Positions 39,089 to 60,900 of a DNA stretch of 64,000 bases are shown here, one piece after another. The notes under the pieces are model-generated. The model was given only the letters and a program-made list of their open reading frames with translations, was not told the origin of the DNA and made no database searches. A program made the translations under genes and the position numbers. Numbering within the stretch: position 1 is the first letter of the stretch; every line of letters begins with the position of its first letter. This DNA is from a candidate division FCPU426 bacterium (GTDB lineage: Bacteria; Oederibacteriota; Muellerivitia; Muellerivitales; Muellerivitaceae). The DNA is taken from positions 1,280,001 through 1,344,000 of the forward strand of contig CAVRAL010000001.1 of NCBI GenBank assembly GCA_963719085.1. The letters are read 5' to 3'.

Positions 39089-39125
39089 AAAAAAGCCCTT
39101 AGGCGGAATGCTTAAGGGCTTTTTT
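39089..39125. terminator. Bidirectional terminator
   Basis: A-tract, AGCCCTTA...TAAGGGCT stem, T-tract between convergent genes. Confidence 0.8.
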
Positions 39126-39191
39126 AATTTCACGCTAGTTTCGAGTCAAAACAATCTCCGTCAATTCTCAAACCGAACCCTTTTAATTTGT

Positions 39192-39767
39192 TCAGGGATG
39201 AAACTTTTCGCCCTTCGAAAGCATTTCCACGAATTGGTTTATCCGTTTGCGCCGGGTTTCAGGTTTTTTCGCCGTTTGAAGCCGGTAAATGATGGAATAC
39301 ACATTGGGGCGGCTCAAACTTTCTAAAAAGACCTTCGCTTTTGAATTTTTACTGACTTCCCGCAAAAAATCCGCCGGTAATTCGGCTGAACTTTGCGATT
39401 GGTAGGCTTTCAACCAACGTCCGTCTTTTTTAGCGGATTCGATTTTTTGTAGTCCTACCGGTTTCATGCGGCCCGCTTTGATTAGGCGTTCGGCATGGCC
39501 GACATTGATCTTCGACCAAGCACTTTTCGACTGTCGCGGGCCAAATTTCTGCAGCCAGGCCTTATCATCAAAAGCCGCCTTTTGGCCGTCAATCCAACCG
39601 TAGCAAAGGGCTTCGTCCAAAGCTTCCGGGTAGCTAATCGAGATGACTTTAGAATCTTTCTTAAAAATTTTCAGCCAAACACCCTGAGACGCGACATGAT
39701 TTTTAGCGAGCCATTTTTTCCATTCATGGGCCGATTTGAAAGAAACGATTTTTAAGTCTCTGGCCAT
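39192..39767 (-). CDS. YdeI/OmpD-associated family protein
   Basis: EALCYGWIDG, SAWSKIN, AKKPETRRKRI. Confidence 0.88.
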   Translation of the reverse strand: MARDLKIVSFKSAHEWKKWLAKNHVASQGVWLKIFKKDSKVISISYPEALDEALCYGWIDGQKAAFDDKAWLQKFGPRQSKSAWSKINVGHAERLIKAGRMKPVGLQKIESAKKDGRWLKAYQSQSSAELPADFLREVSKNSKAKVFLESLSRPNVYSIIYRLQTAKKPETRRKRINQFVEMLSKGEKFHP

Positions 39768-39786
39768 TTTTAAACGTTCCTTTACT

Positions 39787-39814
39787 GGTCCAACCCGGGG
39801 CCCCGTCGCGGACA
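39787..39814. repeat. Degenerate copy of the 28-bp palindromic repeat
   Basis: GGTCCAACCCGGGGCCCCGTCGCGGACA, 22/28 to the consensus. Confidence 0.5.
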
Positions 39815-39902
39815 CCCGATCCCATCACATTGATTTTAATAAGGGAATTTCAAGATTTTCCATCAACTTCCCAGTAAAAATCGCTATCTTTTTTTCCCTT
39901 TA

Positions 39903-40214
39903 ATGTCTAACGTACAAGCCAATATCAAGGCTCTAGGAAGCCAAAAGGAAATCGCAATGGATATGTTGAACAGCAACCCCACGGAAACCGAGGCGGTCCC
40001 CACCTCCGTTCCAGCCCCCATGCCCAGCACCCCGGAATCGGCCGCCACTCCGGCCCCGACCCCCGCCCCTGCGCCGGTCGCAGCCGTTAAGATTGAAGTT
40101 GCAAAAACGGATAAAAAAACGGTTGGCGGATGGAACCGCTTTGCGGGCTACAACCCCAATGCCGCGAAAAACAAGCCAAAGGACGGCCGCAAAGGCCCCG
40201 GTGGCCGTAAGTAG
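39903..40214 (+). CDS. Pro/Ala-rich low-complexity small protein
   Basis: ORF with AAGGA before the internal ATG at 39957; followed by a hairpin terminator. Confidence 0.55.
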   Translation: MSNVQANIKALGSQKEIAMDMLNSNPTETEAVPTSVPAPMPSTPESAATPAPTPAPAPVAAVKIEVAKTDKKTVGGWNRFAGYNPNAAKNKPKDGRKGPGGRK

Positions 40215-40251
40215 TTCTAAAAAGGGCACGCGTTTCTTTTTCGTCTGGAAA

Positions 40252-40300
40252 TAAAAAAGGGCCACACAGTACGCATCGAGCGTGAAGAGTGGCCCTTTTT
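40252..40300. terminator. Terminator hairpin
   Basis: AAAAAAGGGCCAC...GTGGCCCTTTTT. Confidence 0.65.
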
Positions 40301-40403
40301 GTTTAACCCTTAGCTCTTAAAACATATGGGTCCAGTTGGAGTTCCCCCGCCTTAGTGGGCGGTCCATCTGTCAATTGTCAAGCCTGACCCTTTTACCTCT
40401 ATA

Positions 40404-40430
40404 TGACAGGCCGGCGCTCTAACCAAGCTA
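40404..40430 (-). repeat. Degenerate tRNA-Asp fragment (possible old att scar)
   Basis: 40404-40426 matches tRNA 52662-52684 at 22/23, followed by GCTA after a 4-nt gap. Confidence 0.65.
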
Positions 40431-40439
40431 AAAATATTG

Positions 40440-41057
40440 TTATTTCAATACGCACCAAAAATTATCATCTTCAGCGCCAACATGGGCTTCTGGAGTGGTA
40501 GGTTGGCTCATACAAGCAACAACCTGTCCATCGCTATACTCCAAATACAAACCACTGGAGCTTTGAAATGTATAAACATTTGAGCCGTCCGGATCCACGC
40601 GCAGGAAAGTTATAGTCCACAAATGATTATTAGAATTGGCAAGACTATCTAACATTATTAAAGCTTTTGAATAATTGGTACCAAAAGGTCCTTGAATCAA
40701 GTAATAAACATTGGATCCATCAGAAAAATTATTACTGTAAATTGGCGTAACAACGGTTTGGCCTACCGCAGTAGGTATTGAGTTCATGCACCATTGGAAG
40801 TTTCTTGAACCGTCCGGAGGAGAAACTACGGTTTCTTGTTTATTGGTCATTCCGGCGCCATAAACATTAAGCCCGTATCTAATTTTATTTTTAGAACACC
40901 TCGAAAAAGTGTTGATGGTATAAACACTTGTCGGCGTAATAGCGCTTGCTTCACTTAAAAAACCAGAAATTAAATAAACGCTAACTAAACCAACGATAAT
41001 AAAAACCCCAAAAAATAAACTATTATTAAACCAAGTGGTCTTTCCGATCATATGCAA
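40440..41057 (-). CDS. AT-rich exported hypothetical protein, possible beta-trefoil (ricin/fascin-like) C-terminus
   Basis: N-terminal TM; HLWTI, YTFQSSSGLYLEY, NFW. Confidence 0.55.
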   Translation of the reverse strand: MHMIGKTTWFNNSLFFGVFIIVGLVSVYLISGFLSEASAITPTSVYTINTFSRCSKNKIRYGLNVYGAGMTNKQETVVSPPDGSRNFQWCMNSIPTAVGQTVVTPIYSNNFSDGSNVYYLIQGPFGTNYSKALIMLDSLANSNNHLWTITFLRVDPDGSNVYTFQSSSGLYLEYSDGQVVACMSQPTTPEAHVGAEDDNFWCVLK

Positions 41058-41649
41058 GTCACCTCAAATAATTTAATTTAAACACAGCCAATTTTATCCC
41101 TGCATGTTTCGAAAACCGTTCACCTTCATGTCGACTATAACTTGAAGGTGATCCTCAATCAAAACCGTCTACCAATTTGATCCTTAATAAACACCGGCAG
41201 CAAAAAATCTGCAGTTAAATAATCCCCACCAATAATAGTATTGGTTAAATCGTATTGTTCGGAACTAACTAGTGCAGCACCAGCAGAAACAAAACCGCCA
41301 TTTGACGTTCAACCGCCAGAAACAATAAAATCAAATAAAGATATACAAGCTAAAGAAATTAATTTCGTCATACATTCCAATCCGATTTAAATTTCAAGTA
41401 TTGTGCCTTTTTTTAAACATATATATCAATAATAAAATGTACCAAAATATTTTTTTACATTCCCATAACACAAACCACTGCAAGAGAACAAAGGGTCGAA
41501 TAGTCCATGCTTTCCCCAAATACAGACACAAAAATAAAAAGCCTAAATTGGAAACCCATGTTGGGGCCTTATTTATATGGCGGGGGCATAAACCCTCCAG
41601 GGGGGCTACGCCTGGATCTCTATCGCCCCACCAACCCTCCACCGCAAAT

Positions 41650-41687
41650 AAAAAAGCCCCCAAATGGTTGTCCATTTAGGGGCTTTT
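41650..41687 (-). terminator. Terminator just beyond the distal att copy
   Basis: AAAAAAGCCCC-CAAATGG-TTGT-CCATTTA-GGGGCTTTT. Confidence 0.75.
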
Positions 41688-41693
41688 ACTAGT

Positions 41694-41739
41694 ATGGCGG
41701 GGTTGACGGGGCTCGAACCCGCGACCTCCTGCGTGACAG
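41694..41739 (-). repeat. att site: 46-bp duplicate of the tRNA-Asp 3' half
   Basis: Identical to 52622-52667. Confidence 0.95.
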
Positions 41740-41794: not shown

Positions 41795-42907
41795 TCACTC
41801 TGCCGACTTAGCGATCTGTCCGTTTGTCATACTGGTGTCATTGTACTTTTCCACCTGTTTAAAGGCGTCCTCCCGGTCTTTCCGGTCGATCCGGTTGTAC
41901 CGTTTGAACATGGCATAAGTCTTATGGCCTGATATCGACATAATGACTGAATCGTTCACTCCCGCTTTCCTCAAATTAGTCACCGCGCAATGCCTAAGGT
42001 CGTGAAACCTGAAATCCACGATCCCCGCCTCGCGCCGGGCGTTGGTGAAAGCGGTTTTAATATCATCCATACGTTCGCCCTTATGGGTGAAAACATAAGG
42101 ACTTCCAAGGGTCTTAGGCGTCCGTTTCAAGAGTTCAATCAAAGTCTCCGTCAACGGCACTTCCCGTTTTTCTTGGGTTTTAGTGTCGGCGGCTTCCAGC
42201 GTAATAACCTTATGCTGAAAATCCACCTGCTCCCACCTTAGGCCCAAAATTTCACCCTTCCTCATACCCGTCCAATAAGCCAACTGGACAATGGTACTGA
42301 TACGGGGTGAACACCGCGCCAAAAACACCTGGTATTCCTCAGGTGATAAGGTACGGTCACGGGATGCTTCCTTGAAGGCTCGGACCCTCTGAATCGGGTT
42401 CTTCTCCGACAAACCGTTAAGAACAGCCCGATTCAAAATGCACTTGAGGATACCCAAGTCCCGGTTAATGGTGCTGTTAGACAGCGACTTCCCAAAACGG
42501 TTTTTTCCTGGACCCTGATTCCCGGCCTTCCGCCGATGGTTCAAAAAGCCTTCCACGAGGTCCGGGGTAAAACTCGTCAAGGGCCTGTCACCAAAATAGG
42601 CCTTGAGTCTGTCCACCATTTGGATGTCGTTTTCGTAGGTCTTCCTTCGCACTTCGGAATACCCTAGAAACGAATCCGCCGCCTCGAAAAAGCCCGGTTC
42701 CGGTTTGCCTTCGGCCAAAAACTTGCCCGCCACAATTTCCTGCGTATGCTTGGCAAGGATTAATCTAGCCTGGGCCGCCGGAATCTGTCCCAATCGGACC
42801 CTCTTACGCTTCTTAATTCCCCCTTCTTCGACAAAATAATCTAAAAAATAACCCTTCAAATCCTTTCGGAGATGTTCGGGCAATCCATGAACATTAGGTT
42901 TACTCAT
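41795..42907 (-). CDS. int: Tyrosine recombinase / phage-type integrase
   Basis: TGMRKGE, FHDLRH, SGHKT..MFKRY catalytic residues. Confidence 0.95.
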   Translation of the reverse strand: MSKPNVHGLPEHLRKDLKGYFLDYFVEEGGIKKRKRVRLGQIPAAQARLILAKHTQEIVAGKFLAEGKPEPGFFEAADSFLGYSEVRRKTYENDIQMVDRLKAYFGDRPLTSFTPDLVEGFLNHRRKAGNQGPGKNRFGKSLSNSTINRDLGILKCILNRAVLNGLSEKNPIQRVRAFKEASRDRTLSPEEYQVFLARCSPRISTIVQLAYWTGMRKGEILGLRWEQVDFQHKVITLEAADTKTQEKREVPLTETLIELLKRTPKTLGSPYVFTHKGERMDDIKTAFTNARREAGIVDFRFHDLRHCAVTNLRKAGVNDSVIMSISGHKTYAMFKRYNRIDRKDREDAFKQVEKYNDTSMTNGQIAKSAE

Positions 42908-43106
42908 TACGTCCTCCCAATGTCCCTAGCGGCTCAATTGTATCAGGCTTGTGAAAAACCCGGTTAAACTCTGAAAGCCATATCCGCGGGTGTTTCCCCA
43001 CCTTTACAAAAGGCAATACCCCAGTTTGCCGCCAATACTTAACCGTATTGGGGCTAACCTTTGCTAATTGGGCTACCTCTTGATCCGTTAATAAGCTATC
43101 AGCCAT
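42900..43106 (-). CDS. Excisionase-like HTH protein
   Basis: LLTDQEVAQLAKVSPNTVKYW..G.LP.VKVG; overlaps the int start. Confidence 0.85.
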   Translation of the reverse strand: MADSLLTDQEVAQLAKVSPNTVKYWRQTGVLPFVKVGKHPRIWLSEFNRVFHKPDTIEPLGTLGGRNE

Positions 43107-43229: not shown

Positions 43230-43619
43230 CTAAGAAGATTCCCCCTCCCCTGCTTTAGCCTTCTTTTTTAACCCCTTTTTAATTTGAAGCTTTATGGCTT
43301 CAATTTCGGCTTTTAAAGCCGTTTCAACGAACTTCGTATCCTCATCCACGAATAACCCCCTCTTATCCCTAACATCCTTCAATTTGGCCTTCACTTCTTC
43401 CAACAGGGCTACTTTTTCGAGGATTAGCCCCCCGGACTTCTTTTTGAATGCTTCGCCTTCCCCTTCCATCCATTCCCGAAGCTTTTCTTCTCCCCTTGCC
43501 CTTCGAATGAAAGCTTGAAGACCGCAGGCATCACATATGAAATACGGTTTTGCTTTCACCGTTTTCTTAACTTCAACCATTCCGCCACATAAAAAACATG
43601 GGATTTTGTTTAATTCCAT
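43230..43619 (-). CDS. Zn-ribbon + coiled-coil protein
   Basis: CFLCG...CDACG followed by a helical tail. Confidence 0.7.
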   Translation of the reverse strand: MELNKIPCFLCGGMVEVKKTVKAKPYFICDACGLQAFIRRARGEEKLREWMEGEGEAFKKKSGGLILEKVALLEEVKAKLKDVRDKRGLFVDEDTKFVETALKAEIEAIKLQIKKGLKKKAKAGEGESS

Positions 43620-43689
43620 GAAATGACCATCCTTTCGTTACGTTACGTTCGTTGTGGACCATTCCCCCAGAAAAGACTCAGGGGGAAAT

Positions 43690-43725
43690 AAAAAAGCCCA
43701 TAGAAGAATGATTCCTTCTATGGGC
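43690..43725 (-). terminator. Terminator hairpin
   Basis: AAAAAA-GCCCATAGAAG...CTTCTATGGGC. Confidence 0.7.
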
Positions 43726-43800
43726 GAATACTAAACGACTAATGGAAAAAGACGGTAGGAGCGGACAAGGAACGACGAAGGAATGAAACAGATTTATCTT

Positions 43801-44712
43801 TTATGAATTTTGGGTAGGATTCTCAAAAGAAAGGCCGAGATCAATTTCCCGAACACTATTTTCGAGGTATTTCGGATTCAATTGCCAAAAGCCTTTTCCC
43901 GAAGGCCCAGCAATCACCAATTCATGCCACGATTCCCCTTTATGGCTTTTGAATATTTGGCTCAGGGAATCGCTTTGAATTTCCTTCGGTAAATAGGCGT
44001 GAATTTCGTCAATATGAATTTCGGGGAGGTTTTTCAAAAAGGTTTCGAATAGAATTCGAACAACCTTGGCCGCGTTCGAATGAAATGACCATTTCTTCTT
44101 CCCAAACATAACCACGTTACACAATTTCGAATAACAGAGCTGTGTTTTCGACTCCCCAAGGGAATTCCCCTGATTAGGATAAAGGCGTAAATCCAGCCTG
44201 AATTTCACCCAAGCTTCCCCTAAAAGGCTCTGAATATCTTTGTAATTCAAATAAACGTCAATATGCTCATCACCCGAAAACCCTATTTGGTCTTGGCCGA
44301 ATTCCCCGCCTGTATTCCTAGTCCCACTTGACCAAAACGTTCCGTAATATCCCAAATGCCCTAGGGCCTCTTTCGAAGCTTCGACCGAAATTTCGGTCAA
44401 TTCGGAAATTCGAACCGCCGAAATAGACTTCAAATTGGGGTTTTTACGAAGTTCAATCCGGATTGCCTTGATAACCTTATCAAGGTTTTCGAATACCGTA
44501 TCTTTCGAATTAACTACCCAAATACCCAAAAGATTTAAAAGGTTGTCCGTAACAAAGGCCCGATGTAGGTTTTCATACTTAAACCCTGCTGGAATTTCAC
44601 CGTAAAGATTCACTTTAAATGTCGCGGGATCGGGGACACCTTCATTGGCGTATATGGCCTTAAGCCAAAGCATTTCAGGCTTCGAAAGTTTAAGGTCTTT
44701 TAAAAATAACAT
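43801..44712 (-). CDS. Hypothetical protein, possible wHTH domains
   Basis: 303-aa ORF; HTH-like ISAVRISELTEISVEASKEALGHL and a C-terminal wHTH-like segment. Confidence 0.6.
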   Translation of the reverse strand: MLFLKDLKLSKPEMLWLKAIYANEGVPDPATFKVNLYGEIPAGFKYENLHRAFVTDNLLNLLGIWVVNSKDTVFENLDKVIKAIRIELRKNPNLKSISAVRISELTEISVEASKEALGHLGYYGTFWSSGTRNTGGEFGQDQIGFSGDEHIDVYLNYKDIQSLLGEAWVKFRLDLRLYPNQGNSLGESKTQLCYSKLCNVVMFGKKKWSFHSNAAKVVRILFETFLKNLPEIHIDEIHAYLPKEIQSDSLSQIFKSHKGESWHELVIAGPSGKGFWQLNPKYLENSVREIDLGLSFENPTQNS

Positions 44713-44783
44713 CTATCATTTAACCCCGTTATTCGGAAAAACTAAAATCAACTAAACCACTTCAAAACCAAACAAATGCACAT

Positions 44784-45659
44784 TCAATCAGAAGTAATTT
44801 TATTTAACCAAGATTTCACAATCTTCAGCGATTCTTCATTACTATTGTAATTTTCGTATATCTTATGAAAAAAATCGGAGGGCATTTTTTGAATATTTTT
44901 ATTTTTCAAAAGCAAACACTTCCGCTGCAGGAAATGCATCATTCCGAGTTCATATGTGACATTTGGGTTGAAGATCGGTTTCCGTGGCAAAGAATCAAAT
45001 ATAGCTATGCCATATTTGGAACTTATTAAACAAGCTTGCCAGTTATACATGTCGTCAGTTAAAGAATGTTCATTCGCAATAATGGCATTGAACGTTTTAT
45101 CGTTTTCATGATATTCGTTAATAGTTTTTTTTATCGCAAGATACAGCTTACTACTTGCTTTTTCGTAACGAGTCATAATAAAAACATTGGTATCAAAAGG
45201 ATATTTTTTTAAAAATTTTTCTATTTTCCCGACATGTCCAACCAAATGAGGTGGAAATAATTCCGAAGGTAAATCCGGAATACTTTGAATGAACCCCAGA
45301 TGTTGAATTGCAGTTCCCGGCGCCCCCCCAAACTTAAGGGTATTTATAGTCAATAAACCGATTATTTTTCGTATGTCTTTTAACTTTAATCGAAATTTAG
45401 ATTTATTAATTTTTTTCGTAATATTCGAAAACACGTATTCAAATATTGGCTCAACTTGACTCAATAAGTCTGTATTGCTTTTTGTAGCGCTAAAAATAAC
45501 CTTTATGTTCTGCGACCAGGTGAAATAGAGTTCGTTTAACCGTTCTTTAAGCGATGAATCAGTAATGGTTTTCGTACTGATCTTTGAAATGTCGCCAATG
45601 ATGGCGTCCAGTTCCTGATTAAAAACTTTAATCTTTACCATCAAATGGCTAGATGTCAT
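44784..45659 (-). CDS. Helical N-domain + TIR/nucleoside deoxyribosyltransferase-like C-domain
   Basis: VFIMTRY...GIAIFD...NPNVTYELGMM...LLLK...PSDF. Confidence 0.7.
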   Translation of the reverse strand: MTSSHLMVKIKVFNQELDAIIGDISKISTKTITDSSLKERLNELYFTWSQNIKVIFSATKSNTDLLSQVEPIFEYVFSNITKKINKSKFRLKLKDIRKIIGLLTINTLKFGGAPGTAIQHLGFIQSIPDLPSELFPPHLVGHVGKIEKFLKKYPFDTNVFIMTRYEKASSKLYLAIKKTINEYHENDKTFNAIIANEHSLTDDMYNWQACLISSKYGIAIFDSLPRKPIFNPNVTYELGMMHFLQRKCLLLKNKNIQKMPSDFFHKIYENYNSNEESLKIVKSWLNKITSD

Positions 45660-46141
45660 TTTTTAGAAGAAGCTATTAAATTCAAAACGATATCTTCTCC
45701 ACTAGTTGTGAGTGCAAAAGTCCTTTTATTTTCTTCATTTTCACCCGCTCCCATCATTAACCCTTGCTTGACTAACTTAGAAACGGTGTCACTGATATTT
45801 GTGAATTTTGATTGCTTAGCGTTTTTACATAATTCAGCAATGTCAGATGTTGTGAAATTGGGCTTATCGAGATTATTTTCCAAAAAATAAGCTAATGCCA
45901 AAGCTAAATCAGCTTGGCTTTTTGGTGAAACTTTTTTCCTTATAAACTCGCTAGGAGCCAAAGCCTTATCAATCGGCTTCGAAACCGCTTGCGCAGCCGA
46001 AGGAATTACCATAGAGTCGCCAAGATTATTTTTTTTATGTTTGGCAATAAATTCTTCAATTTTATTTTCCACATACTTCTCAGGTCCCGTAACTTCGACG
46101 GAAAAATTCCCTAATTGTACTTTTATTGTTACGTTCGGCAT
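45656..46141 (-). CDS. Winged-helix protein
   Basis: LAYFLE..FTTSDI..NISDTVSKLVKQGLM..FALTTSG; ATGA overlap with the next gene; start taken at MPNV. Confidence 0.65.
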   Translation of the reverse strand: MPNVTIKVQLGNFSVEVTGPEKYVENKIEEFIAKHKKNNLGDSMVIPSAAQAVSKPIDKALAPSEFIRKKVSPKSQADLALALAYFLENNLDKPNFTTSDIAELCKNAKQSKFTNISDTVSKLVKQGLMMGAGENEENKRTFALTTSGEDIVLNLIASSKK

Positions 46142-46347
46142 TTGTTTCCTCGATTCAAAACTTAATGTTATTTGGATATTGAAATGCAAAGGAACTGCAT
46201 CTCCGCAGTATACAGCTATCGTTTCCAGGCACATCGCTTTAATCAGATAATTCTAATTCGCAAACTACTATCTGGGTTAAATCTGAAAAAGCAAACTTCT
46301 GTCAAAGCAGACATTTTTAAATAATCAACGGCTTGTGGCATTTGAAA

Positions 46348-46749
46348 TCAATGTTGTTCGATGTACTCCTGAATCTTCTTCTTAAACTCAATCGGGCTTT
46401 CAATACATTTATAAACTTCTCTAATACCGCCGGAACTCGCAATAATAATTGTACCGTAATTCAACCATCTCCCGAATATCCCCTGGTTTACAGCGATATT
46501 TGAAATTTTGTTTAACTGTGTTTCCAACGTGCGAGTTTCAAAAACACCCACTTTAATTAAAGTCCTCTTATCGGTAACTGCAAATTCAGAAGATTTTCTC
46601 TTTATAAAATTATAAACCCCTAAAATGATCCCCAATGGGAAAAATACTATTAACCAAAAAACCGTCCAACGAAAAACGATCCAATGAAATCGCGTTTCAT
46701 AAATAAGTTTTTCGTCATTTGCTAAATTCTCATCAATATAACGGCCCAT
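46348..46749 (-). CDS. Bacterial PH-domain (bPH_2) membrane protein
   Basis: EFAVTDKR..KVG, VNQGIFGRWLNYGTI. Confidence 0.85.
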   Translation of the reverse strand: MGRYIDENLANDEKLIYETRFHWIVFRWTVFWLIVFFPLGIILGVYNFIKRKSSEFAVTDKRTLIKVGVFETRTLETQLNKISNIAVNQGIFGRWLNYGTIIIASSGGIREVYKCIESPIEFKKKIQEYIEQH

Positions 46750-46900
46750 TGCCCCCCCTATTTCTTCACGATTTTAATATTTTCTGTTTTTTAAATCGCG
46801 CCTATTTCGCATTCACCTCATTACTCATGCTTTACTTTTTCTGACTTTCGACTCCAATCACCCAAGTTGAACCGCCATCACAACTTCACTTACATAAAAT

Positions 46901-47671
46901 TCAATTTTGAGTTCTCGTTCTATTTTCAAAAAGGAGTTTTTTGAAGATCACTTCGTTGTGGTAAAACACACTTTCTTTGCTAACCAAATGGTCCTTAGCT
47001 ATCTTTAATTTGAATTTATTTAACGCTATAGCGCCGAAGTCCAATAAAACATGATGTAAAGGACACACACAAATAACATTTTCTACTTTATCCGAGCCCT
47101 TGTGTTGTCGACCCAATGGCCTTATATGATGGGCTTCAGAATAGAAGTTTCCACGGGACAATCGAATTCGTTTGCCACATACCTGACACCGATGTTGGTG
47201 CATTTCCTTTACCCATCTGGAAACTTTGGTATCTCTAATAATTCGATAACTTTCTTTAAGCAACCTTCTTATCTCTTGAGAACCTTTAGGCATGTCGAAA
47301 GCCCGTAGTCGTCGCCTCTTAATATTTTGCGCTTTCATTTTTGAGGCTTGTTCCGAGGTTCGGATCATTTGTCTGACTTCAGAGTACTTAAAATTTCTAT
47401 AGCCAGGAACGGCCGATATACCTTTCTTAACATGCAAATCATGCCCATGTTGAAAATATTTATTTTTCTCATAGGTCTTACGATTGCGAATTACTAAATA
47501 GCCGCCTTTGTCAAAGAGCACACCCGGGAAATTTTTTAGGCTGTGATACCACTTACCGTCCTTACGATATAAGGCATGTTTTGCCCCAAGGCCAAAGTGG
47601 GCATTCAACATCTTTCCAGTTAACTTTTCAGAGTTTTTTTTATTTATTATATTTTTCAAAACATTGTCCAT
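46901..47671 (-). CDS. HNH endonuclease (McrA-like C-terminal domain)
   Basis: CQVCG...YSEAHHIRPL..GSD.VENVICVCPLHH. Confidence 0.88.
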   Translation of the reverse strand: MDNVLKNIINKKNSEKLTGKMLNAHFGLGAKHALYRKDGKWYHSLKNFPGVLFDKGGYLVIRNRKTYEKNKYFQHGHDLHVKKGISAVPGYRNFKYSEVRQMIRTSEQASKMKAQNIKRRRLRAFDMPKGSQEIRRLLKESYRIIRDTKVSRWVKEMHQHRCQVCGKRIRLSRGNFYSEAHHIRPLGRQHKGSDKVENVICVCPLHHVLLDFGAIALNKFKLKIAKDHLVSKESVFYHNEVIFKKLLFENRTRTQN

Positions 47672-47690
47672 TTAATCATCAAAAAAATAA

Positions 47691-48479
47691 TTAGACCGCG
47701 TAAGGACGCCGAAGCGAAAGATACCCTTCGACCGTTTTCACAATTTGAATTGAAGCACCATCATCTATGTCAGGAACACCAATGACTTTAGAAATCCAAG
47801 CCATTTTTCCATCACGCCTAACTATCCAATTCGACAAGACTCCAGAACTATCCTCAATTTGAATTTCGCCATTAGGAATTCTAATTGTAGACGCAAACAT
47901 AATTGCTCCATCAGTCGCACTATACTTTCCAAATCCCAAACTTTCTTTCCGAACATCTAAAGTCCCCTCAACACCATAAGCTACAACACCATTGCCAGTT
48001 CGAAAGACAGATACAGAAAGCATCTGAACATCCAAACCTAGTAATGCGAGTTCCCAAGAACGAAAATTTTTGTTAGCTACGACAGCAACGCGCTTGGGTA
48101 CGTTATCTAAAAAATTAACAGCTTGTCCTCGGGAGATATCCAAGCTACTAGCCAGAGTACTAATACAATCATCCTCCCAGCGACCGTACCTTAGTACCTG
48201 AAGTTGAGGCAATACATGTTGCTCAAGAGAATGTGATACTAATTCCACCTCGATAACAAACCAATGAGAAGCGTCTGGAGCAACAAGTGCCAAATCCGCC
48301 CTAGATTTCCGGCCTTCAAAGCTGAAGGTCCCCCTAAATGGGATGCACTTATAGCCAAGCCTAAAACACATTAAAGCCTTTGCCACTTCGCTTTCAAACT
48401 GAGCCTCAGTGAAAGAGACAGGATCAACCAGTCCAAACCGACGATCATCTGAACACTCTCCTACCATAACCATCTTCAT
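47691..48479 (-). CDS. PD-(D/E)xK-like nuclease-fold protein
   Basis: E..FE, RADLALV, WFVIEVEL..H; ATGA overlap with the helicase stop. Confidence 0.6.
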   Translation of the reverse strand: MKMVMVGECSDDRRFGLVDPVSFTEAQFESEVAKALMCFRLGYKCIPFRGTFSFEGRKSRADLALVAPDASHWFVIEVELVSHSLEQHVLPQLQVLRYGRWEDDCISTLASSLDISRGQAVNFLDNVPKRVAVVANKNFRSWELALLGLDVQMLSVSVFRTGNGVVAYGVEGTLDVRKESLGFGKYSATDGAIMFASTIRIPNGEIQIEDSSGVLSNWIVRRDGKMAWISKVIGVPDIDDGASIQIVKTVEGYLSLRRPYAV

Positions 48480-49639
48480 GCCTTGCCCCATTCCACTTTG
48501 GCAATTCCTTCCATTTCCCGTTCCTCTTCTTTTAACCGTGCCACTTCAGGATCAGTCGCGACCAATGTATAAACAACAGCATTACTCTTATCATGGGAAG
48601 GGCGCAAAACTCTCCCAAGTCTTTGAATGCGCTGTCGCCTTGTTGCCGTGCTCGCAGCGACAATCCCGATTTCAACTTCAGGAACATTAAAGCCTTCATC
48701 CAAAGCACGACATGTAACCAAAACATTTATTATACCTTTTCTAAAAGCAGCCAGTGTTTCAGCTCGCTCCCGTAAAGGTAATTTAGAATGATAGACGCCA
48801 GCTTTTACAGAGTTTGTCGTGAGCACTTCATAAATCAAATTGCAAGCTTCAATGTCTTCGTGAAAAACAAGAATCCTTCTTCCTGCGTTCTTCCGAACGA
48901 GACGCAACGCCAACTTTACGCGATTCAAACTCATATTTAAAATACGGCTCCTGCGCAATAACAGCGCTATGGTTTCTTCGGCTTCTATCCCTCGGCTTTG
49001 TATTGAGCGCGCAATCGATCGAGTTAACTTGTCATATTCCCTTTGATTATCTTCCTCCAAATCAAAAACGATATTTTTCAAAACGAAAGGAACAATTAAT
49101 TTGTCACGAAGGGCATCTTTATATGTATATTCGTAAATTACATTTCCAAGCTGCGGAATTAATATTTCCGTCAACCAATCATCGTAAGCACGCTCAGGGG
49201 TTGCAGAAAGTCCCAATGATGCTGATCGAGGAACCTGGAAAATGTTGCGGAACTTCTCACTTGCAGCTTTATGACATTCATCAACAATTAGAAGGCAGGA
49301 CTTACCCAAGTGTGCAGATGCTTTGGACCAATCCAATTTCGCAGCTGAATTCAAAACCGCAATATTGATCGCCCCACGCCTGAATCCTTGGCGCTTATCA
49401 ATTATTCGTATGTCGTCGAGTTCGAGTCCAAAGTAGTGGCTAGCTTCTTCCCACCACTGTTCAAGCAATGCTAACGTGGGAACTACAATGAGAGTTGTTT
49501 CTGGCGAAATCTCTTTGATGCAGGCAAGAGCAAAAACAGTTTTACCGGCACCTGTAACAACACTGGCGATACCCTTATTACCTGCCGCTTTCCAAACCTT
49601 TAGGGCTTCCTTTTGCCATTGTCGTAATTGGTTGCTCAT
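48476..49639 (-). CDS. SF2 DExH helicase (XPB/Ssl2-like)
   Basis: LRQWQ, TGAGKT, DECH, SAT, LDEGFNVP, QRLGRVLR. Confidence 0.92.
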   Translation of the reverse strand: MSNQLRQWQKEALKVWKAAGNKGIASVVTGAGKTVFALACIKEISPETTLIVVPTLALLEQWWEEASHYFGLELDDIRIIDKRQGFRRGAINIAVLNSAAKLDWSKASAHLGKSCLLIVDECHKAASEKFRNIFQVPRSASLGLSATPERAYDDWLTEILIPQLGNVIYEYTYKDALRDKLIVPFVLKNIVFDLEEDNQREYDKLTRSIARSIQSRGIEAEETIALLLRRSRILNMSLNRVKLALRLVRKNAGRRILVFHEDIEACNLIYEVLTTNSVKAGVYHSKLPLRERAETLAAFRKGIINVLVTCRALDEGFNVPEVEIGIVAASTATRRQRIQRLGRVLRPSHDKSNAVVYTLVATDPEVARLKEEEREMEGIAKVEWGKA

Positions 49640-49648
49640 TTTTATCGC

Positions 49649-51238
49649 CTATGAAGTTGTAGGCCTTGACGAAGAAGATGCCTCAGGAACATTCGACGCA
49701 GCTTCCCTTTCAGTTGCTGCCTTGTTCTCAATCCTAACAATTTTGGCCTTAAGAAGATCATTTTTGAGACGACGGACACTGTCAGGATTCACGCGACCTT
49801 GCAAACTTGTAACGCGAAATTCCGAAATAGCATCATAAATAAACTGCCGCAAACACTCTTCGATAGCTTCGGTTGAATAAATTGAAGAGTAGTATGGATG
49901 AAGACCGTTGACAATGATATGGATGACCCCCTTTTCAGCCCCAGCCTCAATCGTAACATAGGGATCGTGCTCGCTTCTTTCCTGTTCTGAGACTATCACT
50001 TTCAGATCAGACAAAACTTCGAGAGTATATAGACGATCGTCCACGCTGAGTGAAGCGACTTGTTTAGCATTATTGGCTTGAATCGTCTCAACTGGAGGTA
50101 ATACCACCGTACTAATTGCATCCTTGATCTCAGGATTTACGAATTCCGAAGCCATACTTTCAACCAAGTCCTTCATCTTTTCTTTTGACCATGATTGCCC
50201 TCGATCGCCCCGACGACTTTGAGCATACTCCCGATATGTTTTTGTTGCGTTTTCAAGATATCTTTCCAATTCCTCTTCTTCATTTCCTTGAAAAAGAATC
50301 GCATCCTTTGTATGAGAAACCTCAAAACCATCCAACTCGATGACTCCAGCGAGACGTTGGGCAATAAGATTATTTGCACCCTCATCATCAACACCGCCAA
50401 ATATGTTACTCGGCTTCCAAGCATTTGGGACACCTTGGATTTGACGCCCATGTTGGAATAAGGAAAAACCTGCCCATTTTCTGCCACCACTCCCTTTACG
50501 AAGGACACCAAACCACCCCTTCACTTTCTTCCCTTCAATATTTACATCAAATTCTTGTTTCATAGACTTACCTTCTGCATCGGTATCGATAGCATATTTA
50601 TCAATACTGGTAACCGCCTCACCGTTATAAGTAAGTTTCAAAACACCTGAAGAAAGGTCAAACCGATACATAGAGCCAAAATAAGTACGAATGGTATCTT
50701 CAGTTCTTTTCTGAATGTGTCTATTCAAATCAGAAATGATAATACGAGTGTAGTGTAAATTTTTATCTACGGGGCGGGACGTCAACGGAACGCGGGCGCG
50801 CCCTTCGACAATCGCGTTTACATCAATATCTGCCGTCCACTCAATACCACTATCCCATTCACAAGTAACTACCTGCCACCGTCTTCCTATCCAACACGCG
50901 GCCGTCTTCAATCCCATTCCATACTTCGATCGCCCCTTACTATCGCTAGTAGGATTAGCGATTTTAAGGGCTTGAATTAGCTTATCTTTAGTCATTCCAA
51001 TTGAATTGTCCTCAATGGTTATCGTCTTTTGTGTTTTGCTGTGAATTATATCAACCACTAGACCTGTGCCTTCCGCCTTGAAAATATCATTCACAATTCC
51101 GCCATAATTCGTGCGCGATTGAGTCGAATTATCAATAAACTCGGCGAGCGCATACCACATCGTATAAGGCAGACGGCTAAACTGACTAATGGCGCTTACA
51201 CCAACAGTTAAATCCGTTACATCATTTTCCTGTTGCAC
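49649..51238 (-). CDS. GHKL ATPase (prokaryotic MORC-like)
   Basis: ALAEFIDNS, IEDNSIGM, SKYGMGLKTA, S5-like GFSLFQHGRQI and RLAGVIE, C-terminal NGLHPYY. Confidence 0.88.
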   Translation of the reverse strand: MQQENDVTDLTVGVSAISQFSRLPYTMWYALAEFIDNSTQSRTNYGGIVNDIFKAEGTGLVVDIIHSKTQKTITIEDNSIGMTKDKLIQALKIANPTSDSKGRSKYGMGLKTAACWIGRRWQVVTCEWDSGIEWTADIDVNAIVEGRARVPLTSRPVDKNLHYTRIIISDLNRHIQKRTEDTIRTYFGSMYRFDLSSGVLKLTYNGEAVTSIDKYAIDTDAEGKSMKQEFDVNIEGKKVKGWFGVLRKGSGGRKWAGFSLFQHGRQIQGVPNAWKPSNIFGGVDDEGANNLIAQRLAGVIELDGFEVSHTKDAILFQGNEEEELERYLENATKTYREYAQSRRGDRGQSWSKEKMKDLVESMASEFVNPEIKDAISTVVLPPVETIQANNAKQVASLSVDDRLYTLEVLSDLKVIVSEQERSEHDPYVTIEAGAEKGVIHIIVNGLHPYYSSIYSTEAIEECLRQFIYDAISEFRVTSLQGRVNPDSVRRLKNDLLKAKIVRIENKAATEREAASNVPEASSSSRPTTS

Positions 51239-52238
51239 TTTTCACCCTCCTGTTTTTTTTAATCAATTTTCCAAATCGACCAACCGAGCCTCTTATATAT
51301 TCTTTATTCGCCTCAATGGATAACCAACGACGCTTCAATGACTCGGCAGTCGCCCCAGTCGTATTGCTTCCACCAAACGGGTCCAAAACAAGATCCCCCT
51401 TAACGGTTAGAAACTTGATAAAAAATTCCGCCATTTCTTTCGGCATACGAGCCGGGTGAAAAGCTATATTTTTTTCTTTGCAATATTCCTGATAAGGATC
51501 GTTTGTTCTAGTATTTGAAAAAATCAAGACATTGCTAGGAATGGCCCCGCCGTTTTTAGTAAGAAATGAAGTCTCCCCAATGTTATGTTCGGAAGGGCGT
51601 TTACCGGAATTATACTTTTGGGTCTTTAGCAACCGTTTCATAGACTCGCTGTATTCAACGAGCACGCGCTTATTGTTTGCCTTAGGAAATGCATCTTGCG
51701 ACATCCACCAAATATGGGTATATGCATCTTTTACTCGAATGCGCCGGACATTCACCCATTCAGCTGGTCCCGGTAAACGAGCAGGGTTATACCAAACAAA
51801 TTGCTGGCAAAGCTTCAAGTGACCCAAATCCAGAAACGCAAGAAGAGATCGCAGAGCAAGTGTCGACATCACTGGTTCGCCAGGCTCCCATGCATTGCCC
51901 ATTTCGAGAACAACAGACCCGCGCGGCTTCAAGAAATAATTCAATTCTTTGGCAAATCCCGAAAGCCACTTCGTGAATTCTTCCCCTTCCTTGTTTCCAT
52001 ATTTTTTTTTGCGGTTCAGCGGAAAAGGCGGGGAAGAAAAAATTAGATCGACTTTACCTTTATATTTTTCAAACATTTTCGACTTTAGAACAATTTCCGA
52101 ATCCCCGTGAATCATGGCTCCCAAACTAGTCCTATAAGCTATTTTCGGTTTTTGAATACTGATTTTTTCCAATGTCGTTCCAAATTCAAGAAAATGTTTT
52201 AGTGATTCTAACCGAACATCATTCAAAAGAGAACTCAA
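51222..52238 (-). CDS. Beta-class N4-C/N6-A DNA methyltransferase (M.PvuII-like)
   Basis: SPPF before HPARMP and DPFGGSNTT; EWVNVRRIRVKDA recalls M.PvuII; start uncertain. Confidence 0.9.
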   Translation of the reverse strand: MSSLLNDVRLESLKHFLEFGTTLEKISIQKPKIAYRTSLGAMIHGDSEIVLKSKMFEKYKGKVDLIFSSPPFPLNRKKKYGNKEGEEFTKWLSGFAKELNYFLKPRGSVVLEMGNAWEPGEPVMSTLALRSLLAFLDLGHLKLCQQFVWYNPARLPGPAEWVNVRRIRVKDAYTHIWWMSQDAFPKANNKRVLVEYSESMKRLLKTQKYNSGKRPSEHNIGETSFLTKNGGAIPSNVLIFSNTRTNDPYQEYCKEKNIAFHPARMPKEMAEFFIKFLTVKGDLVLDPFGGSNTTGATAESLKRRWLSIEANKEYIRGSVGRFGKLIKKNRRVKSATGK

Positions 52239-52463
52239 GTCAGCCTATGCAAATAAAACCCCAAACTGATTAGGCCACCTAAAAGACAGCTTATAACGTC
52301 CCATTTCGAGCCTTTATCCTTCAATTTATTTCAAAGTTAAGCTAATACACATTTCCACTTCTTTACGAATCCAAGACAAGAATTGCCACCTTTGAAATTG
52401 GCCTTGATCGATTTCAACAACCTCCTGCATGAAACGCAGGTGGCTGTTCAATAGAACCTTTTC

Positions 52464-52491
52464 GTGTCATATACGTGTCATTCGGTGTCAT
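52464..52491. repeat. Triple GTGTCAT repeat, candidate integrase arm-type sites
   Basis: Starts at 52464, 52475 and 52485; matching pair at 41824 and 41835. Confidence 0.7.
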
Positions 52492-52538
52492 TCAAAGCAT
52501 GTTTTTACCATCTCTAACCGTCGACTACCATCAGAAAT

Positions 52539-52591
52539 AAAAAAGACCTTTGCTCGCTCGGGTGATGAAACCCTTACAGGCAAAGGCCTTT
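52539..52591 (-). terminator. Terminator downstream of tRNA-Asp, supplied by the island
   Basis: AAAGACCTTTGC...GCAAAGGCCTTT with a minus-strand U tract. Confidence 0.65.
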
Positions 52592-52622
52592 GAAAATGTG
52601 CTAGGGACATTTTAATTTGTAA

Positions 52623-52699
52623 TGGCGGGGTTGACGGGGCTCGAACCCGCGACCTCCTGCGTGACAGGCAGGCGCTCTAACCAACTGAGCTACAACCCC
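52623..52699 (-). tRNA. tRNA-Asp (GTC)
   Basis: GGGGTTGTAGCTCAGTTGGTTAGAGCGCCTGCCTGTCACGCAGGAGGTCGCGGGTTCGAGCCCCGTCAACCCCGCCA; 77 nt, cloverleaf, encoded CCA. Confidence 0.97.
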
Positions 52700-52786
52700 C
52701 TGCAGAAGGACGAAAAAGCGGGAAAACACATCGCTTTGTCACAGGCCCCAAGGGGCCTTCCCACAAGGGAAGCGAAACGAGGCGCT

Positions 52787-57983: not shown

Positions 57984-60900
57984 TCAAGCCGTTGTAGGCT
58001 GTGGTTCTTGCGCCTTAGAAGCGGCCTTTTGCATCTTCAATTTCTTCACCGAGAAACGGGACACGGCGTTCTTCGTAATGCTCTTGGCCGACAGCTTATA
58101 TAAATATTCCCCTTCGGCTTTGCCCGTGGCGTCCCAAACGCTGACGGCGTAGGCGCCGCCTTCCCGGCGTTCCTCGATCTTGTCGATCAATCCCCCGGTG
58201 GAATCAAACACTTCCAAGGTGACCTGGCAGTCTTCCTTCAAGAAATAATAAAAGCGGATCGGACCGGGAACTGGCGGGATGGGGAAAAAGCCCATGTCTT
58301 CCACGAATAAATGCGCCTTGCCGTTTTCTTCCGGCTCGAGGGCGATATCTTTCAAACGTAAGACCGGGAATTGGTCGCTGTGCAGGCGGATTTCGTATTT
58401 GCCTTCGGGCATGTTGGAAAAGTAAAAGGCTCCCTTCACATCGGTCACCGCCGTGGCCACCACCTGGTCATTCTTGGCCAGCTCAATTTTGGTTCCTGAA
58501 ACCGGGGTGGCGGCGTCTTTTCGGAAAAAGCGGCCGTTCAATTGGCTGAGTTTGCGGATGATGATCTTTCGATGGGCGGTGAGGGGCGCGGGTTTGCCCT
58601 TGGCATCCACCGCGGCCACATGGAAATACCAGGTGCCTTCGGGGATGTCTTTTAACTCAATGTTGCTTTCCGAGGTGAACACGTCATCGGCGGTGAGCTT
58701 GTCATCTTCCTGACGGCTGAGCTTGTAGATATAGCCAATCGCCTCATATTTGACGTCGGTGTTCGAGCGCAAATGAAAGATCGGGTTAAAAATCGGCGTC
58801 GCTTCGTCTTCTTTGGGATGGGTGGGACTTTCCACCAAAGGCGGTGGAATTTGACTGCCCGCGACCCGCACCGCCAAATGATTGGGGTCCGAGACATTCC
58901 CGGCCCCGTCCCGGCAAACCACATGCAGGTACCAGGTGCCCGGCTCGCCGGCTAAGGCCGTAAAGCCCGATTCAGTGGTGCGGACGACGGTGGAAAGGTC
59001 GGGGATCGTTTTGGCCGATCGGTCGAATACGTAGTAAAAGGCCTCGAACCCTGAAAGTTTCGGGCGGGGCGCCAATTGGAAATAAACCTTGCTGGCCTGA
59101 TACCAACGGCTCTCATCGGGGTGGCTGGTGGAAACGACTTCCGGCGGCGCCGGCCGTTCCAGGTCCACCTTCATACGGTAATGGGCCGGTTCGCTGAAAT
59201 TGCCCGCCCGGTCCCGGGCGACCAAATGGAAATACCAAATCCCGCTCTTGAGATTGCTTAAAGACGCCCGCAATTCTTCCGTGCCCGTGGCCTTGCCGGG
59301 CTCGGGCTTGGTCGTGGGATGCTCATCCAACAAATGGTAATAACCCGCGATGCCGGTGGCGTCCGAGGGGGCTTTCCAAATTAAAAGCGGCGCGGCGTTG
59401 GTGCTCCATTGATCCGGCGGATGGGTGGGGCTGGTAATTTCGGGGGCGTCCACGCCGTGGTCCGACAGGGCCGCGGCGGTTTGGTTGTCCTCGTGCTGTT
59501 CATTGCCCATCTTATCCACGGCCTGGGCGCAGTAATAATAGGCGGTGTTTTCGCGAAGGCCCGTTCCCTTGTCCATGAAACCCGGTTCCTTCACTTCCCC
59601 GTCGATGGAGATTTTTTGCTTTTTCTCGCCCTCGACCCAGCGGTAAACCCGGTAATAGGCGGTGCCCGAAACCCGGTCATTGACCGGATCCCACTTGAGC
59701 TCGATATCCCCATGGGGTCGCGACAAGGCCTTGAGGCTGACCACCGGCGGGGGGGGTGAAATATCCAGCGTCACGCTGGCCATCTCCACCGACGGGAAAG
59801 GTTCCACGTTGCCCACCTTGTCCTTGGCCCGGCAGCGGAAAGCGAAGCGCTGGCCGTCTTGGCCCTGGTAGCTGGCGCCCCTTTCATAAGTGTCCACCAG
59901 CCAATCGGTCCAAGCGCCGTTGGGGCCCGCCTTCACTTGCACATCAAAACAAGCCACGTCGCTTCCGGCGTCCACGGCTTCCCAGGTCACCGGGATTTGG
60001 GTGCGATCGAGGAATAAGGGCAAGGGATTGAGTTTTGATTTCGGCGCCGTAGTATCGATAAAGACCGGGTAATGGGCGGCTTCCCGGCTGAGATTGCCCA
60101 CCTTGTCTTTGGTAGTGATGTGGAAATACCATTTGCCGTCTTTGAGCGCGGGCGCCTGGAACTGGTTGGCCTTGACCCATTGGCCGTTTTCAGGCGTGGG
60201 GATGGTTCCCGGATGGCCGTCGATTAAAAGGTAATAACCGTCAACGCCCGATAGCTCGGCCGGGTCTTCCCAGGTGAATTGCGGAGTCTGGCTTTTCACC
60301 CAGTGATGGGCCGGATGGGTGGCGCTTTTCACCAGCGGCGGCTTGGCGGAAGAATCGACTTGGATTTTAAGACGCCCCGCCTCGCCAAAGTTGCCCGCCT
60401 TGTCCTTGGCCGACACATGGGCGTACCAAACCCCGTCGTCGGGCAGTGTAAAAACCGTATGGGTTCCGGTGATCCAGGTCATTTTTTCCGCCAGCGGTTT
60501 CCAATGCTCTTCGGAATTCACGGCGAAGTAATAGCCTTCGATACCGGATAGATCGACGGGTTCTTTCCAGAATAACTCCACCCGCCGGGCGACCATCCAG
60601 CCTTCGGGATTGGGATGCGTGGGAGACGTCAAAACCGGCGCGGCCACATGGGTATCGACCTTGATCCGGTACCGGGCCGGTTCAGGCGAGGTGTTGCCCG
60701 CGGCGTCCTGACAGATGACGGACAGGATATGGATGCCATCCCGGGGAACGTCGATTTCCAGATCCGTGGATTCTAAAAAGGCCGAGCTTTTGGGATCGGG
60801 CGTTACCTTTTCATCTTCCGAGAAGGTGTAGTAATAACCGGTGATCCCCGAAGGATCCGCCGGGGGATGGAACTTGAACTGGGCCTTGGATTTCGAAACC

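Follow-up and report, generated by a model that had tools for sequence, protein, structure and literature searches.

Operons in which a MORC ATPase accompanies a Rad25-like helicase, a nuclease of the restriction endonuclease (RE) fold and a cytosine methylase were predicted to be restriction-modification (R-M) systems by Iyer, Abhiman and Aravind in 2008 (PMC2292703), and the text of that paper also proposes a MutL-like mechanism for the class. According to the text of PMC5861437, R.CglI, which combines a nuclease with a B3-like domain, has an SF2 motor subunit as its partner. PbeA is described in the text of PMC10853773 as joining an HKD nuclease to an SF2 helicase in one protein. Here we analyse a locus of related composition in a 64,000-nucleotide stretch of DNA from a candidate division FCPU426 bacterium (assembly GCA_963719085.1, contig CAVRAL010000001.1, positions 1,280,001 to 1,344,000; hereafter the window), which probably encodes a horizontally acquired, self-contained, ATP-dependent R-M module of four genes. 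An earlier sequence-only reading of the window had singled out five genes at this locus as a candidate undescribed defence operon. That observation is real and was correctly spotted, one gene too long, and what it captured is a variant of the predicted class. The word undescribed holds in that literature searches found no named or tested equivalent of the four-gene set; it does not hold for the class, which the text of PMC2292703 already predicts.

A conserved four-gene unit

The locus comprises five co-oriented open reading frames (ORFs) spanning 46901-52238, all on the minus strand (coordinates are window positions throughout):

51222-52238, minus strand, methyltransferase (M subunit), 338 aa
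49649-51238, minus strand, MORC-type GHKL ATPase, 529 aa
48476-49639, minus strand, helicase (H subunit), 387 aa
47691-48479, minus strand, R subunit, left as an unknown protein by the sequence-only reading, 262 aa (the longest ORF extends to 48491)
46901-47671, minus strand, HNH gene, a neighbouring separate gene, 256 aa

The co-orientation and tight packing reported for these genes are exactly as described: in gene order, the methyltransferase and ATPase genes overlap by 17 nucleotides (nt), 9 nt separate the ATPase gene from the helicase gene, the start of the R gene overlaps the helicase stop codon in a 4-nt ATGA, and 19 nt lie between the R and HNH genes. The five genes occupy 5.3 kb and the four-gene core, here called the cassette, 4.5 kb. 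The TTG start of the methyltransferase gene is uncertain, and the GTG start of the ATPase gene is preceded by AGGAGGG. A promoter and terminator scan of 46200-52700 produced counts at or below shuffled expectation.

Conservation of the gene neighbourhood had been suggested as a check on the operon, and it came out clearly for four of the five genes. Of 8000 candidates scored against the ATPase, 1062 are relatives at E <= 0.001, and identity is 58-65% in the top 120. In a scan of 185,579 species genomes, one per species, 175 stretches encode an ATPase relative; the best 80 were kept and their gene content was read by tblastn with the window proteins. The methyltransferase, ATPase, helicase and R genes are all present in 69 of these 80 loci, upholding the proposed linkage of a PvuII-type methyltransferase to an ATP-driven multi-subunit machine. 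In 66 of the 80 loci the four genes are co-oriented, in three different orders:

methyltransferase-ATPase-helicase-R, co-oriented, 32 loci
methyltransferase-helicase-R-ATPase, co-oriented, 27 loci
ATPase-methyltransferase-helicase-R, co-oriented, 7 loci
all four genes, methyltransferase on the opposite strand, 3 loci

Wherever the other two genes sit, R directly follows the helicase in all 70 loci with both genes. Methyltransferase, ATPase, helicase and R form a single conserved unit, and the retention of content under a changed order is strong evidence that this unit is functional. Incomplete loci number 11, and in seven of them (L001, L025, L043, L063, L067, L068 and L070) a contig end cuts the sequence at the position of the partner. 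The flanks hold no fifth conserved gene: when 586 ORFs of at least 70 aa within 4 kb of the 69 loci were clustered, the largest cluster covered 5 loci, 4 of them coinciding with integrase matches. Fusions of cassette genes were not found in these loci, except for an open methyltransferase-helicase junction in L079. There (L079:4498-7195), the two frames merge into a 654-aa ORF whose methyltransferase part is N-terminally truncated; this is the only such case among 34 loci with that gene order and could reflect decay or an assembly error.

The hosts include Planctomycetota, Acidobacteriota, Alpha-, Beta- and Gammaproteobacteria, Bacteroidota, Gemmatimonadota, Verrucomicrobiota, Chloroflexota, Actinomycetota, Myxococcota and Armatimonadota. 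Occurrence is sporadic and evidently a product of horizontal transfer, the ATPase being present in one of 99 genomes of the window's own phylum. On plasmids the ATPase has no close relative, the two matches there being distant (28.6-32.4% identity, covering 59% of the query), and among phage records it has no match.

Component proteins and their relation to described systems

The 262-aa protein has no family match in Pfam, PADLOC, NCBIfam or PHROGs. An AlphaFold2 model built on a 20-sequence alignment is confident (predicted local distance difference test, pLDDT, 84.6) and has two domains. In an exhaustive structural comparison, residues 22-178 match nucleases of the RE fold, with XisH (2OKF) scoring 9.0, PaqCI 8.3, NucS 8.0, the FokI cleavage domain 7.5 and Bax1 6.5, and with Can2, McrC and HamA as further matches. 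Residues 178-262 match B3 pseudobarrels, namely those of FUS3 (7.9), RAV1 (6.8), the R.NgoAVII B3 domain (6.5), ARF1 (6.3) and BfiI (6.0). Foldseek concurs, returning the VAL1 B3 domain (probability 1.00), XisH and EndoMS; ESM Atlas yielded unnamed clusters only, plus a weak NucS_C lead at 0.82. Within the modelled nuclease domain, D62, E77 and E79 are invariant in a PD...ExE arrangement. Mean pairwise identity is 47% in the B3-like domain versus 56% in the nuclease domain, and this greater divergence fits a specificity-determining role. From the model, we read the 262-aa protein as the R subunit, a PD-(D/E)xK-type nuclease fused to a B3-like pseudobarrel, with the pseudobarrel (about residues 178-262) as the likely DNA-recognition domain. 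The RE-fold N-terminal domain agrees with the sequence-only reading, which had called this protein PD-(D/E)xK-like. Relatives of R number 158 in a word-indexed search and 626 representative clusters in an exhaustive profile search; of the best 150, nearly all are fragments or free-standing proteins about 260 aa long, and none is a fusion.

The methyltransferase matches PF01555 (1.5e-36) in Pfam and MTase_II (8.5e-90) in PADLOC, and aligns end to end with M.PvuII (1BOO; 1e-76, residues 32-322 against 7-294). It features SPPF near residue 69 and a C-terminal cofactor motif, FGGSNTTG, near residue 288. On these matches it is assigned to the beta-class (permuted) N4-cytosine DNA methyltransferases of the M.PvuII family. 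The PvuII site CAGCTG has an observed/expected ratio of 0.86 in the host genome and ranks 27 of 64 six-base palindromes, which is uninformative on PvuII specificity; an apparent scarcity of CAGCTG in the window flanks (3 versus 14.7 in a mononucleotide model) was not upheld under a Markov model.

The helicase matches ResIII (1e-21) and Helicase_C (2.3e-17) in Pfam and archaeal XPB/Rad25 (2FWR) at 2.2e-38. It also matches the PADLOC model of PbeA (4.7e-79), a match confined to model positions 252-644 of 672, and TIGR04095 (1.3e-57) with 195.9 bits, below the cut-off of 600. Invariant motifs include Walker A (G30/G32/K33/T34), DECH (120-123), SAT (145-147) and motif VI (Q336-R343), and the protein is accordingly predicted to be an XPB/Rad25-like SF2 helicase or translocase without a fused nuclease domain.

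The ATPase matches PF13589 (HATPase_c_3; 5e-24) and contains all four Bergerat/GHKL ATP-binding motifs of the MORC family as defined in the text of PMC2292703, with a lid of G102-x-x-x-x-G107-x-G109. Residues E33, N37, D77, G81, G102-G109 and K311 are invariant among 20 homologues. An S5/transducer-like middle domain follows the ATP-binding domain, and the C-terminal part (about 340-529) is without assignment. In the text of PMC2292703, the motif GhXhhpXXRhl in the S5-fold domain is the signature uniting prokaryotic and eukaryotic MORCs; ATPase residues 257-267 fit it at 10 of 11 positions, the exception being a Q at the last 'h', and G257, F258, L260, F261, R265, Q266 and I267 are invariant. 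The AlphaFold2 model of the ATPase is weak (pLDDT 64), and Foldseek with this model returned MORC3 (5IX2), MORC2 (9CDJ) and SMCHD1 (6MW7) at E-values about equal to those of Hsp90/TRAP1, with lower root-mean-square deviations for the MORC/SMCHD1 rows than for the Hsp90/TRAP1 rows. Because the model is weak and Hsp90/TRAP1 match it equally, we call the protein MORC-type from its motif and Pfam family, not from its fold. Overall, the methyltransferase, both ATPases and the nuclease keep their catalytic motifs intact, with no variation among homologues, and the domain calls made earlier for the methyltransferase, ATPase, helicase and HNH proteins hold (PF01555, PF13589, ResIII/Helicase_C and HNH_2, respectively).

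How does this set compare with described systems? Like the MORC operons of 2008, as their text describes them (PMC2292703), it places a GHKL plus S5 ATPase beside a Rad25/XPB-like helicase, an RE-fold nuclease and a cytosine methylase, and it shares their sporadic, laterally transferred distribution. Those operons usually have their RE-fold (or HKD) nuclease as part of the helicase polypeptide, whereas here the nuclease is encoded by a separate gene and fused to a B3-like domain. The B3 (VP1/RAV) domain is noted in the same text for the SWI2/SNF2 type, whereas here it belongs to the partner nuclease of an XPB-like helicase, and the methylase is of the N4-cytosine M.PvuII type, unlike the description given there. 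What sets the cassette apart from the text description of the 2008 class is a nuclease subunit that stands alone and joins the RE fold to a B3 domain, an M.PvuII-type N4-methylcytosine (m4C) enzyme and a fixed four-gene content; an identical operon may be present in Figure 2 or the supplements of PMC2292703.

The resemblance to CglI and NgoAVII, as presented in the text of PMC5861437, lies in a small R protein made of a nuclease and a C-terminal B3-like barrel, a separate SF2 translocase and a cognate cytosine methyltransferase, and the modelled R subunit does appear to carry a B3-like DNA-binding domain; membership of these systems was considered and rejected. The methyltransferase is a close M.PvuII relative (full-length, with SPPF), and the PvuII Type II system was rejected in turn, since Pfam found no R.PvuII-like or C.PvuII-like family among the 13 ORFs of at least 125 aa in 39-57.5 kb; the restriction side of that system is replaced here by three unrelated proteins. 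The helicase module of PbeA and of TIGR04095 'dnd_restrict_1' (CxC-ABC/Dnd-associated) is the best PADLOC and NCBIfam match of the cassette helicase. Assignment to Pbe or dnd_restrict_1 was rejected for want of an HKD domain, a CxC ABC ATPase, DndE-like proteins or dnd genes, and PADLOC matched no neighbour to PbeB, PbeC or PbeD. Mza, Tiamat, Hma and MADS were likewise rejected, as the ATPase matches none of their PADLOC v2 models beyond MzaB at E 0.0058 (NCBIfam MzaB, 24 bits against a cut-off of 850). Archaeal XPB-Bax1, a helicase-nuclease pair according to its PDB titles, has Bax1 N-terminal and Cas2-like domains that are absent here; unlike it, the cassette has a B3-like domain, a methyltransferase, a GHKL ATPase and a mobile-island context. 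PADLOC v2, proposed earlier as a check, returned no full system match and recognised an orphan Type II methylase, a PbeA-like helicase and, next to the cassette, an mREase_IV match of the HNH protein; none of its models covers the ATPase or the nuclease. Because the methylase and the helicase are all that PADLOC v2 sees of the cassette, the assignments made here fill a gap in defence annotation.

Island setting and neighbouring genes

The five genes are cargo of a 10.97-kb integrative island at a tRNA-Asp gene, as its attachment-site repeats, integrase, excisionase-like gene and low G+C content demonstrate. These features are:

52623-52699, minus strand, tRNA-Asp (GTC) called by ARAGORN, just upstream of the methyltransferase gene
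52622-52667, minus strand, proximal attachment-site repeat, formed by the tRNA-Asp 3' half
41694-41739, no strand, distal attachment-site repeat at the far end of the island, matching the tRNA-Asp 3' half perfectly over 46 nt
41795-42907, minus strand, tyrosine integrase (Phage_integrase, 2.2e-31), adjoining the distal repeat
42900-43106, minus strand, excisionase-like small HTH_17 protein (HTH_17, 1.1e-08; excisionase PHROGs)

The two perfect 46-nt direct repeats bound the island, and the methyltransferase gene lies between the tRNA-Asp and the ATPase gene. The G+C content of the island is 0.35-0.50 versus 0.53-0.60 across most of the remaining window. The tRNA-integrated island that had been recognised from the letters of the window is therefore borne out by the tRNA-Asp gene, the 46-nt repeat, the integrase and the low G+C content.

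Further cargo consists of five co-oriented genes in 43230-46749:

46348-46749, bacterial PH-domain membrane protein (bPH_2, 4.8e-13), the sole confident family match among the five
45656-46234 and 44784-45659, an overlapping pair encoding 192 aa and 291 aa
within 43230-46749, a 303-aa protein and a 129-aa protein with CxxC pairs

Apart from the PH-domain protein, these have no Pfam, PADLOC or NCBIfam match and at most a marginal PHROG match (E 0.0015-0.0084). Additional defence genes, so far unrecognised, may be among them. Some 1.3 kb beyond the distal repeat, an imperfect second tRNA-Asp fragment (40404-40426) is identical to 52662-52684 at 22 of 23 nt. It flanks a stretch of lower G+C content (0.42-0.46; 39100-41690) with a 205-aa ORF without assignment (40440-41057), and this stretch resembles a relic of an earlier integration into that tRNA-Asp gene. 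Just outside the island region lies a 1862-aa minus-strand ORF with a TTG start (57984-63572).

The surroundings of the cassette in other genomes were scanned with PADLOC at E <= 1e-20, covering 100 of 328 ORFs of at least 180 aa within 4 kb at 22 loci. A match lies near the cassette in 9 of these 22 loci. The matches comprise AbiEi/AbiEii, two Type IV enzymes, a GajB-like helicase, a mad3-like protein, a dCTPase-model protein, a DruM-like C5 methylase, PDC-S06, PDC-S44 and PDC-M61.

Proposed mechanism, alternatives and significance

The components suggest how a four-gene R-M module of this kind could operate. The M.PvuII-family enzyme would N4-methylate cytosine in a short target and thereby mark host DNA, and R, carrying the RE-fold nuclease, would read the unmethylated target through its B3-like barrel. 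The XPB-like motor, whose gene always lies directly upstream of R and is probably coupled to it in translation here, would bind R and translocate or unwind DNA away from the site, in parallel to H.CglI with R.CglI and to XPB with Bax1. The MORC-type ATPase might dimerise on DNA, acting in the manner of MutL as a clamp or matchmaker, and license cleavage only after ATP-dependent communication. In its components this scheme equals Dam/MutL/MutH/UvrD minus MutS. We suggest, tentatively and at slightly less than an even chance, that the cassette represents a distinct minimal ATP-dependent R-M class that needs two different ATP-driven machines: a translocase of the XPB type and a genuine MORC clamp would together license the B3-guided RE-fold nuclease to act on DNA without m4C.

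Several points weigh against this proposal. The third catalytic position in R is E instead of K, an ExE that we read as a BamHI-like variant of ExK. The ATPase model is weak, with Hsp90/TRAP1 scoring as well as MORC. Four loci (L033, L050, L062 and L069) have full flanks and still miss at least one partner. In L033 the ATPase, helicase and R genes are present and the methyltransferase is undetected, which would be hazardous for active restriction unless a methylase is encoded elsewhere. Furthermore, we infer DNA cleavage, rather than exclusion or abortive infection, as the outcome; literature searches found no experimental work on the cassette or on any prokaryotic MORC system, and the text of a 2026 preprint still words the role of prokaryotic MORC as 'proposed'.

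The alternative that survives best, although we consider it unlikely, is methylation-marked defence without simple cleavage of incoming DNA, either as a BREX-like or Pbe-like replication block or as abortive infection in which the ATPase senses and the nuclease is turned on the cell's own DNA. The closeness of the helicase to the PbeA and TIGR04095 models points in this direction, as does the use of GHKL ATPases as sensors in other defence proteins, and the text of PMC10853773 reports that Pbe acts without detectable DNA degradation and that suicide has been put forward as an alternative model for systems of this kind. A conserved RE-fold nuclease with invariant acidic residues that comes with its own DNA-binding domain and a cognate methyltransferase follows, however, standard restriction logic, and the flank ORFs of the 69 loci include no conserved toxin-antitoxin-like or small regulator gene.

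A five-gene complex that includes the HNH protein as its second nuclease, as the sequence-only reading had modelled, is in our view very unlikely. The HNH gene is co-oriented with R and lies close downstream, at 19 nt or, with the later start implied by the 235-aa gene call of a public collection, about 79 nt; the interval is without a terminator-like site, and the text of PMC2292703 notes HNH nucleases in some MORC/paraMORC neighbourhoods. Yet no full-length HNH homologue adjoins the cassette in any of the 69 four-gene loci, and none occurs among the 99 genomes of the window's phylum. L020 has a different HNH protein (PADLOC mREase_IV plus PDC-S36), and L079 has only a 91-aa ORF resembling the N-terminal domain, located just upstream on the other strand. 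The HNH family itself comprises 42 proteins, mostly of about 240 aa, which are found on contigs other than those carrying the cassette, several of them named 5-methylcytosine-specific restriction enzyme A by JGI. The protein matches HNH_2 (Pfam, 1e-08) and mREase_IV (PADLOC, 5.3e-09), and its HNH part is closest to the Type IV enzymes TagI (6GHS, 2.6e-16) and EcoKMcrA (6GHC, 4.4e-09). The HNH domain is homologous to theirs, whereas the N-terminal residues of about 140 match no known reader domain (for residues 1-138, no Pfam match at E <= 1 and no usable ESM Atlas match). Moreover, the cassette already has a conserved nuclease of its own. The HNH gene thus probably encodes a stand-alone, modification-dependent (Type IV) McrA/TagI-like enzyme that shares the island and lies outside the cassette; other Type IV enzymes adjoin the cassette in L017 and L020, as expected for defence islands.

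Least probable of all, and barely credible in our view, is a methyl-directed DNA repair module akin to Dam-MutL-MutH-UvrD or to XPB-Bax1 excision repair: the distribution is patchy and horizontal (175 matches in the species scan), the cassette is integrative-island cargo, defence genes adjoin it at 9 of the 22 loci scanned, and the flank ORFs include no conserved MutS-like sensor of lesions or mismatches.

Returning to the four-gene R-M module, its boundary replaces the five genes of the sequence-only reading and is relevant to anyone cloning the system. Each partner is now structurally assigned, including a predicted nuclease-plus-reader subunit that no family database recognises. Prokaryotic MORC proteins have been tied to R-M by gene context since 2008, as the text of PMC2292703 sets out, and the cassette, being small, sharply delimited and present in multiple phyla, offers a practical entry for the first bacterial MORC biochemistry. 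If the proposal of a MORC class with two ATP-driven machines is true, the cassette would be the simplest natural system in which to learn how MORC acts on DNA upon a methylation mark, and a methylation-responsive bacterial MORC would represent the proposed prokaryotic root of eukaryotic MORC silencing.

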